The position numbers and the translations under genes were made by a program. Below the pieces are notes generated by a model. That model worked only from the letters and a program-made list of their open reading frames with translations, searched no databases and had not been told where the DNA came from. A DNA stretch of 64,000 bases from a virus. Lineage: Duplodnaviria; Caudoviricetes. Positions 25,077 to 29,389 of this stretch are shown here, in pieces (positions within the stretch are counted from its first letter, which is position 1; every line of letters starts with the position of its first letter). The stretch is from the IMG/VR virus record IMGVR_UViG_2700988815_000001, positions 34,288-98,287 of that record; one strand, given 5' to 3'.

Positions 25077-25469
25077 CTATTTTGTATTCATTCCGCCGTA
25101 CACGATTGGGATGCCTCCGCTGATGCGTGTACGTTGCACATAAGACGTGAACCGCTCAGAACGACTCTGCCTTGCATTGATACCGCCAACTGTTGTGGGA
25201 GCAAGCCTGATCGGGTTCATGCCACGATCTTGCAGACAGCTACGTGTCACTTGACGGAATGGAAGCTCCAGTCCCTTGAACTGTTTGAGGCAGTTGGAAC
25301 ACTCAATCTTGCCAGTGTTCAGGCTGACGGTCTTTAGCGTGCATGCACATGTACGGCAGCCAAGCTTACCCTTGAAGTGGCGGATCGCAATACGTTCCTT
25401 CTTCTTGAGCTTGCACACAGCTCCAACGTCCAGTGTAGGCAGTGCATCTATATAGGCTTGATCGTACAT
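25077..25469 (-). CDS. Hypothetical Cys-rich (Zn-finger-like) basic protein
   Basis: CRTC...CSNC; RBS GAGG; minus-strand promoter at 25500-25527. Confidence 0.6.
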   Translation of the reverse strand: MYDQAYIDALPTLDVGAVCKLKKKERIAIRHFKGKLGCRTCACTLKTVSLNTGKIECSNCLKQFKGLELPFRQVTRSCLQDRGMNPIRLAPTTVGGINARQSRSERFTSYVQRTRISGGIPIVYGGMNTK

Positions 25470-25499
25470 CGTGGTGTCCTCGTTTGTTTGTGTTGGCTC

Positions 25500-25559
25500 A
25501 TCTTATACGAAAACTGAATCGAGTCAAGCCCTTGACAGCAGATTTATTCATGATACCAT
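25500..25559. promoter_or_regulatory. Back-to-back divergent sigma70-type promoters
   Basis: Minus: TTGACT(25527-22)-N16-TAAGAT; plus: TTGACA(25532-37)-N16-TACCAT with extended TG. Confidence 0.7.
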
Positions 25560-25564
25560 TCGTC

Positions 25565-25865
25565 ACGTCGTAGGGGAGATATGTCGAACACACTCACCGA
25601 CCTACGGGAACACGCCCTATGAAGAGGAAGCCACAGGGGCAGGTGAACTTGAACTGGATTATACCGTGGCGGCGACCTCTTAGGAGGGAATGATCTGGGC
25701 CTGTGACTGATGAACTCAGCAGCACATGAAAGGTAGAGTAGAGGTTGATCGAGGCAGGTAGTTCCTGTATGATCAGCCTTGGGACAACTTTACCTGATCT
25801 CTCCGAATCTAGCAGCACAGTGAAGATCAAAAGCATAACAGCAACAACATCTAGATCAAAAGCTT
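25565..25865 (+). ncRNA. Candidate structured non-coding RNA / long leader
   Basis: About 300 nt with no convincing CDS; nested stems such as AGGTAGAGT/ACTTTACCT, GAGGTTGATC/GATCAGCCTT and AAGAGG/CCTCTT. Confidence 0.55.
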
Positions 25866-25878
25866 ATAAGGAGGTGGT

Positions 25879-26187
25879 ATGTGTATTGTAGTGAACAAAT
25901 ACAAAGTGAATATGGATGATCCTGATATTGTGTACATAGGTCGCGGGAGCAAATGGGGTAATCCGTACAGCCACAAAGACGGAACTCGGGCACAATACCG
26001 TGTGTCAACCGTTCATCAGGCGATTATGGAATATCGCAAGTACCTTTGGTCGCAAATCTCTGATGGGTTTATCACACTGGAAATGCTGAAAGAGCTTGAC
26101 GGAAAACGCCTCGCCTGTTATTGTACTCCCAATCCCTGTCATGGGAACATTATCAAACAAGCAGTCCAATGGGCTAAGGGGCAATGA
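25879..26187 (+). CDS. DUF4326-like protein
   Basis: VYIGRGSKWGNPY and L.GKRLACYC.P.PCHG motifs. Confidence 0.85.
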   Translation: MCIVVNKYKVNMDDPDIVYIGRGSKWGNPYSHKDGTRAQYRVSTVHQAIMEYRKYLWSQISDGFITLEMLKELDGKRLACYCTPNPCHGNIIKQAVQWAKGQ

Positions 26188-26816
26188 TGAGTCGTGTAGT
26201 AATTCTTGGTGGCGGTACATTCAATCATGTGGCTTGCCATCTGGCGTTGGCCGCTCCAGCCTTTGGTGGGACAGCCAAGCAACTCAACAAGATGTTCGCT
26301 GATAACGGCACGCTTGAGCCTTACCTCGCCCTGACGAAGATGGCAGACCCTGCCAGTCATATGATCACTAACGATCACGTTGCTCATTTCATTGAGCTGG
26401 CCCTTGGGGACGAAGACGTTAAGGCCATCATCATGAACGCAGCCATCTGTGATTTTGAAATGGATAACCCCAGCGAGGCTTCTCGCCTGTCCAGTTCTCA
26501 GGACTATCAGGTGACGCTGCGAGGGATCAACACTAAGATCATGGCTTCCATCAAACAGAAGCGTCCAGATATCATCGTGGCTGGCTTCAAGACCACACAC
26601 GGTGCAAGCAAGGTCGAGCAGGTGGCTAAAGCCTTCTCATCTATGCACAACTCGGGGCTTGACATGGTGTTGGCAAATGATGTAGAGACACGAAACAATA
26701 TCCTTGTTACAAAGGATTTGACAATACAGACTGGCAGCCGTGAGTTTCTGCTTGACCAGTTGATGTGTACTACTGTAATCTACTACAACATGAAGCAATG
26801 GAATCTTGAAGAATGA
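26184..26816 (+). CDS. CoaB-like (phosphopantothenate-cysteine ligase / DFP C-terminal fold) protein
   Basis: GGGT, NAAICDF, VAGFKTT and DMVLAND correspond to CoaB motifs (AAVxDY, VGFxxE, DxxxAND). Confidence 0.65.
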   Translation: MMSRVVILGGGTFNHVACHLALAAPAFGGTAKQLNKMFADNGTLEPYLALTKMADPASHMITNDHVAHFIELALGDEDVKAIIMNAAICDFEMDNPSEASRLSSSQDYQVTLRGINTKIMASIKQKRPDIIVAGFKTTHGASKVEQVAKAFSSMHNSGLDMVLANDVETRNNILVTKDLTIQTGSREFLLDQLMCTTVIYYNMKQWNLEE

Positions 26817-27028
26817 CTCACTGGCTGATCAAGACCGAGCACGGATACATGCTTGAGGATGCAGACGGACGGTTGATTGAATGGTTTGACATGGCATGCA
26901 ACTCTAAGGCATACTGCATGGAAGCCGGGATTACCCCGGTATATTTGACACAGAAGTGCCGACTGGCAGATCGTCAGGCATACAATGCCTACACAGGCAA
27001 AACATTATGGTGGGAGAACGAACAATGA
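26813..27028 (+). CDS. Hypothetical protein
   Basis: ATGA overlap with upstream gene. Confidence 0.55.
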   Translation: MTHWLIKTEHGYMLEDADGRLIEWFDMACNSKAYCMEAGITPVYLTQKCRLADRQAYNAYTGKTLWWENEQ

Positions 27029-27258
27029 CGCATGAAATGCACGCTCTGTTTATGCAGTATCCAGAGGCAATGGAAGAGCTTCAATACCAGATCGCGCGTA
27101 ATGGTTTGGAGTACGCTGACAGTTTCCGAATGGCGTTCTTTGATGACGATGCACAGGTTGAAGCCTACGATGATGCTGTCACCTGCTGTGGGAGTTTCGA
27201 CACCACCATGAAGATCAACGGAAAGCGCGTTCTCATTGGCTGCAACTACGGACACTGA
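27025..27258 (+). CDS. Hypothetical protein
   Basis: ATGA overlap, RBS GGAG; CCGSFD...IGCNYGH. Confidence 0.6.
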   Translation: MTHEMHALFMQYPEAMEELQYQIARNGLEYADSFRMAFFDDDAQVEAYDDAVTCCGSFDTTMKINGKRVLIGCNYGH

Positions 27259-27259
27259 T

Positions 27260-27475
27260 ATGAAGTTTATTGTTGGGCTTGGGTTGTGTACTGTTGCTAT
27301 GTTTGGTAGTATCTTTATGGTGCAGGCTAACCACTTCGATGATCAGAAAATGGCTTGCAAGAGAGCTGATGGTCGTGGTAGCCTAGTTGTCAGTCGAGCA
27401 ACAGGAATTCCAATTGGATATGAGTGTATGAGAATGCACTTGGTACTTAAATACAGAAATGGAGAATACAGATGA
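27260..27475 (+). CDS. Hypothetical membrane/secreted protein
   Basis: Hydrophobic N-terminus; tight packing with neighbours. Confidence 0.5.
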   Translation: MKFIVGLGLCTVAMFGSIFMVQANHFDDQKMACKRADGRGSLVVSRATGIPIGYECMRMHLVLKYRNGEYR

Positions 27476-27666
27476 ACAGAGAATTGGCTCATGCTTTCTC
27501 GCAACTGCGGGTTAGCCAACGTACTACTGTGCTGCAAGATATCAATTTGAATCTCCATCAAGCGAAGGAAGAGAGCAACAACGACTTCATGAAACGTTGC
27601 TTGGAAAAGATTGCATGTGCAGGGTTGATTCGTGAGCTGGAAGCTGCTATGCTGAGGTTTCAGTGA
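27472..27666 (+). CDS. Hypothetical protein
   Basis: RBS GGAG, ATGA overlap. Confidence 0.55.
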   Translation: MNRELAHAFSQLRVSQRTTVLQDINLNLHQAKEESNNDFMKRCLEKIACAGLIRELEAAMLRFQ

Positions 27667-27983
27667 GCGGCTGGGAACGTCAAGAGTTTTATGGCCATGA
27701 TCCAAAGATTGTGGCGTTTGACTTTGATGAGACAATCAGCGATAATGAGCCGCTGTGGCTTCAAGTGATGCTTGCTCTGGAGAAGGGTGGCTACCATGTG
27801 ATTGTCTGTACGTGGAGGACACCAACAACTTATCCAGAAGATTTGAAATTTCTTGTTGACAGGGGATTTAAAGTGTACTACACTTCCGGTCAAGCAAAAC
27901 AAGATTACATGGCTAAGCAAGGAATCAGGGTAAACATTTGGGTTGATGACAATCCATTTGCAATCCTAAATAATGCAAAATAA
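27663..27983 (+). CDS. HAD-superfamily phosphatase (capless)
   Basis: Motif I DFDETI, motif II CTWR, Lys motif III, motif IV VDD. Confidence 0.8.
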   Translation: MSGWERQEFYGHDPKIVAFDFDETISDNEPLWLQVMLALEKGGYHVIVCTWRTPTTYPEDLKFLVDRGFKVYYTSGQAKQDYMAKQGIRVNIWVDDNPFAILNNAK

Positions 27984-27986
27984 GAG

Positions 27987-28014
27987 TTGACAGACTTCAA
28001 AAGTCTGCTACAAT
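27987..28014 (+). promoter_or_regulatory. Sigma70-type promoter with a palindrome in the spacer
   Basis: TTGACA-N16-TACAAT with extended TG; CAGACTT-CAA-AAGTCTG inverted repeat at 27991-28007. Confidence 0.75.
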
Positions 28015-28043
28015 GACCAAATCAAATATCAAAGGAGAAAGAT

Positions 28044-28661
28044 ATGACACAGATTTCCGTAACTCGCGCTCTGGCAGAAGTTAAAGCACTGAACGACCGC
28101 ATCGAGAAAGCAACCCGACAGGCCACCTTCATCAGCGTCACTGTTGGTGGCAAGGTTCCTAACGGTTCTGATCTGCAAGCAACAACCAACACCATCCGAG
28201 CAAACCTGCAATCGGTTCAAGACCTGATCGCTCGTCGTCAGGCTGTGAAGGGCGCTGTTGTTCGTTCCAACGCTGTAACCGAGGTTGTCATCAACGGCGT
28301 CACCATGACCGTCGCTGAGGCTATTGAGCGTAAAGGCTCTATCGACAAAGAGCGTACCCTTCTGGCTGTCCTGCAACAACAGCTCAACCAGAACCGCGTA
28401 GCAGTTGAACGCAACAACGTCACCATGAACCAGAAGCTGGACATGATGATTCAGACTGCTGTTGGTAAGGAGCGTAAAGCTACCGAGGAAGAACTGGAAG
28501 CCATCAGCAAGCCTTACACCGCATCGAACATCACTGCTCCACTTGACCCTAACGGGCTGGAAGCTGTGATCGCCAAGCTGGAAGCAGAAATCAACGGGTT
28601 TGTATTCGAAGTTGACTTCGTTCTGTCTGAGGCAAACGCTAAGACTCTGATCGAGGCGTAA
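28044..28661 (+). CDS. Coiled-coil protein, tentatively DIP1984/DUF6847-like
   Basis: ALAEVKALNDRI, SNAVTEV...MTVAEAI and EVDFVLSEANAKT motifs recalled for this family (not searched); strong RBS AAAGGAG. Confidence 0.7.
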   Translation: MTQISVTRALAEVKALNDRIEKATRQATFISVTVGGKVPNGSDLQATTNTIRANLQSVQDLIARRQAVKGAVVRSNAVTEVVINGVTMTVAEAIERKGSIDKERTLLAVLQQQLNQNRVAVERNNVTMNQKLDMMIQTAVGKERKATEEELEAISKPYTASNITAPLDPNGLEAVIAKLEAEINGFVFEVDFVLSEANAKTLIEA

Positions 28662-28668
28662 TGTTTTA

Positions 28669-28959
28669 TTCATGCTGCGACGAATTGCCTAAATTCTCGT
28701 GACCCTTTCCTCTGGGGTATATCAGGGGAGCCTATTATAGAATGGTATTCTAACCAATCACGCCAACCAATTCTCTGGCGAGAACTAGCATTGACAACGC
28801 TTAAAGTTCAAATAGGAAAGCTGAAAAGCTTAAAGGTCAACTACTAACCTTTTAAAATTTGAAACAATACAGCTAAAAGCTTCTCCAAACCTTGGGATTA
28901 CGTTGAGACGTATAACGAGACGGACGCTGGCAATGCACCCGAGCTGTCGTTAGCATGAA
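28669..28959 (+). ncRNA. Candidate structured ncRNA with an internal 7-nt repeat array
   Basis: Ends pair (TTCATGCTGCGAC / GTCGTTAGCATGAA); internal hairpins; twelve ~7-nt AA-led units at 28796-28882; no ORF; terminator follows. Confidence 0.7.
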
Positions 28960-28967
28960 AACCAATT

Positions 28968-28996
28968 AAGCCCTGCCCTCACCGGCGGGGCTTTTT
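28968..28996 (+). terminator. Rho-independent terminator
   Basis: AAGCCCTGCC...GGCGGGGCTTTTT. Confidence 0.8.
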
Positions 28997-29008
28997 CACA
29001 TCTAGGGG

Positions 29009-29036
29009 TTGACAAGGGGTTAGAATGGTGTAGAAT
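29009..29036 (+). promoter_or_regulatory. Sigma70-type promoter
   Basis: TTGACA-N16-TAGAAT. Confidence 0.75.
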
Positions 29037-29064
29037 GGCCCACATACCAGACAGGAGATACACA

Positions 29065-29277
29065 ATGATTACTGAAGGTCAGATACTAAACTTCGCGGAT
29101 GAACTTGAGAAACGTGTACAAGAACGAGACAGCAGCTACACTGTGCGTGTACAATCCGCACAAGGGATTCACGGCCCTATGTTCTTGATTCATGTAGAAA
29201 ATGCTACCGACTCCCAACGATTCGTGGTAGACTCTGCGCTTCACACATTCCTGAGAGAGTATGACGTTGGACAATAA
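29065..29277 (+). CDS. Hypothetical protein
   Basis: RBS AGGAG before ATG 29065. Confidence 0.6.
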   Translation: MITEGQILNFADELEKRVQERDSSYTVRVQSAQGIHGPMFLIHVENATDSQRFVVDSALHTFLREYDVGQ

Positions 29278-29389
29278 AATCAGAAATCCCTTGGCAGCAG
29301 CCAACCGACGTGTTAATGTACCCAAGGTTGAACGCGACCGTACCAAGTATCGTCGCAAACGTAAACACAAGAAAGGAGAACAAGAATGA
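29261..29389 (+). CDS. Small basic protein, ArfA-like (42 aa, below ORF-track cutoff)
   Basis: MTLDNKIRNPLAAANRRVNVPKVERDRTKYRRKRKHKKGEQE; fills the gap and overlaps both neighbours. Confidence 0.6.
   Translation: MTLDNKIRNPLAAANRRVNVPKVERDRTKYRRKRKHKKGEQE

Follow-up and report, generated by a model that had tools for sequence, protein, structure and literature searches.

The stretch of viral DNA analysed here (the window) comprises 64,000 nucleotides (nt) of IMG/VR record IMGVR_UViG_2700988815_000001 (Duplodnaviria; Caudoviricetes), and corresponds to bases 34288-98287 of a phage genome of 98,287 bases with direct terminal repeats. Positions 27987-28996 of the window form a single unit on the + strand, in which a promoter is followed by a gene for a 205-amino-acid (aa) protein, an RNA region free of open reading frames (ORFs), and a terminator; this gene-RNA module is the subject of the present analysis. 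Strong sigma-70-type promoters surround it, and 0.9 kb downstream of it are the genes for the primase/helicase and DNA polymerase. The Pseudomonas syringae phages phiPsa300, phiPsa397, phiPsa267, psageK4, and psageK4e are 95.7-98.7% identical to it over the 1201 bases around the module, and other Otagovirus and Flaumdravirus phages are 70-87% identical over the same 1201 bases; a nucleotide search with this 1201-base query matched 80 records, 40 of which cover at least 80% of the query. The features of the module, in window coordinates and with the evidence for each in parentheses, are as follows.

27987-28014, +: sigma-70-type promoter, TTGACA-16 nt-TACAAT, with TG before the -10 hexamer (11 of 12 consensus matches)
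28032-28037, +: Shine-Dalgarno sequence AAGGAG, 6 nt before the ATG (sequence reading)
28044-28661, +: gene for the 205-aa helical protein, phrog_1491, with a fold like 3KDQ (ORF, profile, model)
28669-28681, +: helix P1, 5′ strand TTCATGCTGCGAC, then the GA of the family's GAA junction (helix type found in 37 of 44 viral clusters)
28684-28689, +: helix P2, 5′ strand ATTGCC (invariant in 16 phages)
28695-28700, +: helix P3, 5′ strand TCTCGT (two compensatory columns)
28707-28730, +: hairpin H1, 9 base pairs, loop GGTATA (two compensatory columns, 100% of cells paired)
28731-28795, +: variable domain with local hairpins TAGAAT/ATTCTA (28738-28752) and CGCCA/TGGCG (28761-28780) (fold; unalignable among relatives)
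28796-28882, +: repeat array in two blocks, family unit AAAG-n-U-n (periodicity, alignment)
28886-28896, +: CAAACC motif (AAAUC in the family) and helix Px, 5′ strand CTTGG(G) (wide-family helix)
28899-28912, +: hairpin H5, (T)ACGT/ACGT(A) (96.9% of cells paired; without compensatory change, weak evidence)
28915-28934, +: 3′ strands of P3, ACGAGA (28915-28920), and of P2, GGCAAT (28929-28934), within the Px loop (alignment, wide family)
28938-28959, +: Px 3′ strand (C)CCGAG, then CT, then the P1 3′ strand GTCGT-T-AGCATGAA (alignment, wide family)
28968-28996, +: intrinsic terminator, 10-base-pair stem (28968-28977/28984-28993), loop CTCACC, T run (fold, terminator reading)

An initial annotation, made from the letters of the window, had proposed that the module possesses its own promoter, a 205-aa coiled-coil gene, an ORF-free region, and a strong terminator, and each of these elements is borne out. 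The promoter hexamers and the terminator stem with its T run are as listed above, the ORF at 28044-28661 is modeled as a helical bundle, and the region 28662-28960 contains no + strand ORF of at least 20 aa (its - strand holds one 30-aa ORF). In phage KIL1 a promoter is annotated at the equivalent place before the homologous gene, and in phages KIL1 and KIL4 a terminator is annotated at the equivalent place. The 5′ end of the RNA lies 7 nt past the stop codon of the 205-aa gene, and promoter and terminator are common to both. KIL1 and KIL4 also have an annotated internal promoter; no + strand promoter-like site was found within the RNA of this window.

The ORF-free RNA (28669-28959) is about 291 nt long and has a fold-energy z score of -4.0, none of 100 shuffled sequences folding equally well. 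Its structure was examined in an alignment of the intergenic regions of 16 phages (70-100% identical), from which RNAalifold recovered P1, P2, P3, and hairpin H1. With Px included, 97.5% of the alignment cells are paired under this structure, compared with 32-49% when the partners are slid by 1-3 columns. Compensatory changes occur in seven pairs, and the covariation score is 0.159 versus 0.083 in shuffles (none of 500 shuffles reaches 0.159). P1 and P2 are almost invariant among the 16 phages; for these the informative test is the wide family, described below. The + strand is the RNA strand, because three G-U pairs are invariant (41/380, 71/94, and 79/86) and relatives have UUCG or GAAA loops on their variable hairpins. 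P2 and P3 have their 5′ strands close to where the RNA starts and their 3′ strands inside the loop of Px; Px therefore crosses both helices, and the fold is a pseudoknot. The RNA is real, is encoded on the + strand, and has a knotted core.

Several of these helices had been proposed in the initial annotation, with differing outcomes. The pairing of the two ends of the region (28669-28681 with 28946-28959) was recovered by RNAalifold and by the 16-phage count, a hairpin TCCTCTG/CAGGGGA has two compensatory columns, and the helix CTTGG(G)/(C)CCGAG, here termed Px, covaries strongly across the wide family (33 of 37). The TACGT/ACGTA hairpin (H5) is present, with 96.9% of cells paired and no compensatory change. 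TAGAAT/ATTCTA can be found in the sequence, in a segment that does not align among relatives; TTCTC/GAGAA is unverified, the minimum-free-energy fold having CGCCA/TGGCG instead. P2 (28684-28689/28929-28934), P3 (28695-28700/28915-28920), and the pseudoknot itself had been missed. A further possible helix, between GCCTAT and the ATAGG of the array, was rejected because no covariation is visible by eye in the 16-phage alignment.

The variable domain is occupied by other hairpins in relatives, and by a tRNA or a tRNA mimic in some distant members of the family. A further site of variation lies within the array. In a wastewater contig of a relative, window positions 28839-28900 are replaced by 83 other letters, and the aligned relatives carry a variable hairpin, UUCG- or GAAA-capped, at the same place (28839-28900); insertions are tolerated at this position, which separates the two repeat blocks.

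Homologs of the protein are widespread among phages. A tblastn search located the protein in 731 phage records, with coverage of 80% or more of its length in 698, and a search of 1.84 billion representatives returned 2148 clusters at E up to 0.001, nearly all of 200-215 aa. In six distant phages (T5-like OSYSP, Bacillus BMBsp2, Xoo-sp15, Erwinia Hena1, Vibrio Achelous, and a Klebsiella phage) 150-540 bases without annotation come after the gene, and the four of these downstream sequences that were read all contain AAAG-type or related short A-rich repeats. The RNA lies directly 3′ of the gene in 16 of 16 aligned intergenic regions and in 20 of 20 other downstream sequences. Among candidate stretches from IMG/VR, 171 of 224 encode a relative, and 80 of these were kept; together with the six phage loci and the window they make up a viral set of 87 loci, which fall into 44 clusters at 80% identity.

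Conservation of the knotted core was assessed across these viral clusters. P1 was identified by a rule (a helix followed by GA[AT] on its 5′ side, and [GA]CT before its 3′ side) that 37 of the 44 cluster representatives satisfy. In 33 of these 37, Px is present as well, the pentamer preceding CT-P1 being complementary to the one immediately 3′ of an AAAYC motif; the sequences of this helix are diverse (CCAAG/CTTGG, CCACG/CGTGG, CCTGT/ACAGG, CTATG/CATAG, and others). For P2 and P3, scored in 31 representatives against 500 shuffles, the summed best-helix scores are 296.5 (shuffles 189.0 +/- 7.4, maximum 211.5) and 322.5 (shuffles 241.0 +/- 9.2, maximum 270.0), respectively. It is therefore the architecture that is conserved and not the sequence.

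The module also extends into bacterial chromosomes. A relative is encoded in 94 of 165 stretches from bacterial genomes; the carriers are mostly Bacillota (Brevibacillus, Paenibacillus, the Bacillus pumilus and licheniformis groups, Lysinibacillus, and Clostridia), and also include Sericytochromatia and others. The 78 usable bacterial loci form 35 clusters, with P1 in 24 and Px in 21. The module is thus present in T5-like, rV5-like, Bastille-like, Vibrio, and jumbo phages as well as in Bacillota chromosomes. The initial annotation had stated that homologous genes elsewhere are trailed by AAAG-repeat regions, and this is what is seen in the distant phage, IMG/VR, and bacterial loci. Its expectation of a conserved downstream structure and array among homologs likewise agrees with the closing helix found in 37 of 44 viral and 24 of 35 bacterial clusters, and its description of the gene and the structured repeat RNA as a self-contained unit is upheld by a linkage that is kept across very distant phages and bacteria.

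The array at 28796-28882 has a self-identity of 0.49 at lag 7, compared with 0.30 in shuffles (p ~0.0002), of 0.47 at lag 8 (p 0.0008), and of 0.45 at lag 21 (p 0.003). It had been described as 12 units with a 7-nt period; the periodicity stands, while the uniformity of the units does not, five of the 12 being exact AAAG units (starting at 28803, 28817, 28825, 28832, and 28876) and the others degenerate, with three 1-nt slips. A looser count, by a criterion that includes noise, gives 10 units in this window, in blocks of 6 and 4, and a median of 11 per RNA across the family (range 4-20, n = 33). Among the viral cluster representatives, successive AAAG motifs are spaced by 7, 14, and 21 nt in 40, 36, and 11 cases, respectively, against about 2 cases per spacing in a shuffle control on 78 distinct downstream sequences. 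Units spaced by exactly 7 have the consensus A-A-A-G-n-U-n, with U at position 6 in 34 of 40, and in the 16-phage alignment entropy is near zero at the AAAG and U columns, the two n columns being variable.

The 205-aa protein matches the phrog_1491 profile with an E value of 2.1e-73 (residues 1-204 on positions 2-208 of 211). The widespread "tail fiber protein" label attached to this profile and gene appears to be wrong; it is unsupported because the gene sits in an early region beside replication genes, and in tRNA regions elsewhere, and because the fold is a helical bundle. An AlphaFold2 model based on 71 aligned relatives (mean predicted local distance difference test score 95.9) has helices at residues 6-26, 44-78, 90-140, 148-162, and 172-200, and a small sheet of four strands (3-5, 80-83, 86-89, and 202-204). 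Near-invariant polar residues (K14, R65, K69, S75, N76, T79, K97, D191, E196, N198, and T201) adjoin the strands of the small sheet along the sequence, and they would form one basic tip. The effective number of codons is 39.6, versus a genome median of 47.1 over 116 ORFs (33.6 for the major head protein and 36.5 for the tail sheath); this low value fits high expression and a requirement for many copies of the protein per RNA. An antisense ORF of 214 aa (28029-28673, -) spans the whole gene, and is probably a shadow of codon bias, since homology and the PHROG match are both on the + strand.

The best structural match of the model is 3KDQ, an uncharacterised protein of Corynebacterium diphtheriae that has 152 aa, compared with 205 aa here. 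Foldseek assigns the match a probability of 1.00 and an E value of 2.2e-3, and VIA-align a Z score of 10.1, with a root mean square deviation of 8.2 over 151 of 152 residues and 20% identity (the next hit has Z 7.7); a profile hidden Markov model comparison gives E 0.13. For helical bundles a Z score under ~13 can reflect a common arrangement; the match is considered credible because the three routes agree and coverage is full-length. We take 3KDQ to be DIP1984, a member of Pfam DUF6847 (PF20935). The resemblance to DIP1984/DUF6847 suggested in the initial annotation is therefore found at the level of the fold (3KDQ, Z 10.1) and not by the Pfam sequence model: a Pfam search with the 205-aa protein gave no hit at E up to 1, PF20935 included, and searches with 71 family members at E up to 0.01 did not return PF20935 either. 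In one Atlas neighbor cluster, PF20935 is found in 16% of the members (score 0.89). Searches of the 205-aa protein against Pfam and NCBIfam returned nothing above cut-off, and PADLOC returned no defense-family match.

The RNA is equally unrepresented in the collections that were searched. Rfam yielded 0 matches in the whole window at the gathering score and chance-level hits only in 27900-29100 at E up to 10, the best being isrJ (E 0.099) over the terminator; the RNA had no Rfam match in 20 viral loci or in 15 bacterial loci. ARAGORN found 0 tRNA or tmRNA genes in the window. YrlA (RF02553) gave no hit in 27900-29100 at E up to 10, and RAGATH-27 (RF03100) gave none in the window, in 20 viral loci at the gathering score, in 18 viral loci at E up to 0.1, or in 15 bacterial loci. 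The statement in the initial annotation that there is no reverse transcriptase gene holds for the entire 98,287-base genome, in which RVT_1 (PF00078) has no match, so the module is not classed as a retron. A literature search on DIP1984, DUF6847, heptanucleotide-repeat phage RNA, and T5 noncoding RNA, supplementary files aside, found no description. No catalogue searched (Rfam, Pfam) holds the gene-RNA pair, and the RNA is unannotated in every GenBank record examined.

The module is often located near tRNA genes. A tRNA lies within ~1.5 kb of it in 19 of 43 viral clusters, always on the same strand, and in three clusters a tRNA is found inside the span of the RNA (L054, 2238-2314; L055, 2213-2287, to which ARAGORN assigns no anticodon identity; and L083, 2153-2227). 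A fourth locus (L095, 2197-2260) carries a tRNA mimic that scores 43.9 bits against positions 23-85 of the YrlA model (E 1.8e-6), below the gathering score of 69. Processing of the tRNA might cut the tRNA-bearing RNAs into two pieces held together by base pairing.

The RNA is strictly co-inherited with a strongly expressed helical protein, and we assign a probability of roughly 0.6 to the reading that the module is an early, self-contained unit whose two products, made from one transcript, together form an undescribed ribonucleoprotein on the repeat array. Starting from the observed RNA structure, strand, periodicity, and gene-RNA linkage, the binding, stoichiometry, and function of such a particle may be pictured as follows. 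A single early transcript would give rise to abundant helical protein and to the ~291-nt RNA. The ends of the RNA form the knotted core P1-P2-P3 crossed by Px, closing a loop of ~190 nt that displays about ten 7-nt units, the family consensus of which is AAAG-n-U-n. Several copies of the protein could then lie side by side on the array, each reading the constant AAAG..U letters, and the knot would fix the size of the loop and hence that of the particle. A general role in RNA, tRNA, or translation seems likelier for this particle than sequence-guided targeting, because of the frequent location in tRNA clusters and the vertical persistence in Bacillaceae.

Several observations weigh against this ribonucleoprotein reading. 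The match to 3KDQ brings no known function with it, and the exact AAAG units of this window number only 5. The P1 rule failed in 7 of 44 viral and 11 of 35 bacterial clusters; Bacillus phage BMBsp2 is among the failures, yet its array and end pairing are visible by eye, and at least some of the failures are due to the rule and not to a missing RNA. Four wastewater runs labeled RNA-Seq contain only contigs of relatives, which are probably DNA and give neither ends nor strand. The phage studied here has 18 tRNA genes, all on the + strand (genome positions 25358-29163), and its module lies ~33 kb downstream of them, so that the tRNA link is statistical and not local. Finally, ten scanned ORFs that flank seven bacterial loci (among them an SLH protein, an AbiEii-like protein, TnpB, permeases, an RNA methyltransferase, and a two-component hybrid) have no common theme and provide no functional hint.

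Of the other explanations, the one that survives best is that the RNA is a cis-acting 3′ untranslated region of the 205-aa gene, either a stabilizer of the mRNA or an autoregulatory site for the protein, with no separate functional RNA. It is suggested by the close spacing, the RNA starting 7 nt past the stop codon and using the promoter and terminator of the gene, and by the position of the RNA directly downstream in every one of the 16 aligned and 20 other sequences. A four-helix knotted core with an array, kept at 35-40% protein identity, exceeds what a stabilizer needs, however, and in those members with a tRNA inside the RNA, processing would sever the RNA from the mRNA. We therefore consider this explanation improbable, although it deserves more weight than those that follow.

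It is somewhat less probable still that the RNA acts on its own, in the manner of ROOL and GOLLD, and that the adjacent protein is a mere chaperone or an unrelated passenger. The complex core structure and the frequent proximity to tRNAs would fit such an RNA; GOLLD and ROOL RNAs have themselves been reported near tRNAs. On the other hand, the adjacency of gene and RNA survives across virus families and into bacterial chromosomes, and RNAs that fold on their own do not typically contain a long single-stranded repeat array. The YrlA/Y RNAs, which associate with Ro60, provide a related comparison: they share with the present RNA a long stem formed by the 5′ and 3′ ends, and modular insertions occur in both. 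They differ from it in that the partner here is a helical protein, with no Ro60 (TROVE) gene beside the RNA, and in that Y RNAs are without the heptad array.

The nearest concept to this module is VIPR, in which a protein co-purifies with a short-repeat vrRNA (10.64898/2026.04.26.720920) and is reported to form a filament along the RNA (10.64898/2026.04.26.720927). In both cases a minimal phage module pairs the gene of a small protein with an RNA of short tandem units in which constant and variable letters alternate. The Vipr protein is a RAMP (RRM core, G-loop, and thumb), whereas the protein here consists of helices and a four-strand mini-sheet and has no RAMP among its fold hits; the vrRNA is ~100 nt long, with 9-16 YNNGG units of 5 nt (GGY/NN), whereas the RNA here is a knotted molecule of ~290 nt with a period of 7-8 nt and the unit AAAG-n-U-n. 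A further departure from VIPR is that the n letters here are not hypervariable among close relatives, and no target was found in the phage's own genome.

These differences bear on the possibility that the module is a VIPR-like guide, in which the protein holds AAAG..U while the successive n letters read a gapped target in a competitor or host. The alternation of constant and variable letters, with variation among relatives confined to the n positions, is what such a guide would show, and VIPR is a phage precedent for the logic. When the 12 triplets were compared with the phage's own genome, allowing skips of 0-5 (host and competitor genomes were not searched), the best agreement was 21-23 of 36 letters, versus a mean of 22.2 and maxima of 24-26 for shuffled orders. 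The RNA is 100% identical in phiPsa300, compared with 98.6% for the 1201-nt region, and 99.0% identical in psageK4, compared with 96.6%; among close relatives its conservation equals or exceeds that of its flanks, and it is not hypervariable. The protein is all-helical and not a RAMP, and the module persists in many species of one bacterial genus. A guide of this kind is accordingly unlikely, and somewhat more so than either of the two preceding explanations.

A heptad arrangement has also been described for cluster #156,623 (10.64898/2026.10.21.760802), where fixed 4-mers alternate with variable 3-mers with a period of 7. That cluster has a second, reverse-complemented array, whereas the module has none and instead has a constant protein partner.

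A type III-like toxin-antitoxin system, with the repeat RNA neutralizing the protein, or a decoy that soaks up a host RNA-binding factor or nuclease, is marginally less likely again than a guide. ToxIN is the precedent, and resembles the module in combining a protein gene and a tandem-repeat RNA, encoded side by side, in one unit. In ToxIN the RNA lies upstream, a terminator stands between RNA and gene, the units are ~36 nt long, and the protein is an endoribonuclease; none of these features of arrangement, unit, or enzyme occurs here, where the RNA follows the gene without an intervening terminator and the units are of 7 nt. The protein has no match to PADLOC or to a toxin family, and virulent phages carry the module in their early regions. 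The RNA antitoxin envisaged in the initial annotation thus receives no support, the RNA being downstream, its units 7 nt rather than ~36 nt, and its protein partner outside the toxin families. An AbiEii-like gene downstream in one Brevibacillus locus would be in keeping with such a system. This single case is in Brevibacillus porteri (L124, 3056-4548), where the module is followed by a 193-aa ORF and the AbiEii-like nucleotidyltransferase (E 1.6e-6).

The weakest alternative, a DNA-level element such as an origin or iteron array beside the replication genes, is suggested by the A-rich repeats, which precede the primase/helicase gene by 0.9 kb, but is very improbable given the invariant G-U pairs, compensatory changes, and strand-specific tetraloops, and the occurrence of the same element in the tRNA clusters of other phages, always in the orientation of the gene.

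A more specific form of the ribonucleoprotein reading, to which we give the same low odds as to an RNA acting on its own, is that a filament or ring of helical protomers holds AAAG..U and presents the n-U-n triplets outward as three-letter words, which would make it a second, independent noncontiguous RNA code besides VIPR. Such words might have translation-related nucleic acids as their counterparts, for example codons or the anticodon loops of tRNAs; that would explain why the module is located in tRNA clusters from T5 to Bacillus. Mimicry of the anticodon loop was tried as an explanation of the unit and is weak, because G, and not the invariant U33, precedes n-U-n, and A at the first n is undepleted (7 of 40).

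Some other features of this region and of related loci were recorded. In phiPsa267 (MT670417.1), the module region is rearranged as an inverted duplication (locus stretch 1239-1972) with arms of 177 nt (98% complementary) and 137 nt (100%), so that the RNA is present on both strands; the record reflects either an error of assembly or a genuine palindromic rearrangement. In Pyxpy02, the module is closely preceded by a 74-aa gene (1278-1502) that bears the annotation "smpB, SsrA-binding protein"; a Pfam search with this gene was negative at E up to 0.1, and the label is probably a misannotation. In the window, a basic 42-aa ORF (29261-29389, +) matches Pfam DUF7230 above the cut-off (E 6.9e-14), and relatives annotate a 40-aa gene there; the segment 25470-25880, at a strand switch, contains no ORF of more than 80 aa.

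According to this analysis, a knotted RNA of ~300 nt accompanies a protein family with over 2000 representative clusters, present in T5 relatives and in common species of Bacillus, Lysinibacillus, and Brevibacillus. The module is open to experiment in T5 and Escherichia coli. If the protein and the RNA do form a particle, the pair would represent a new class of ribonucleoprotein in phages and bacteria.

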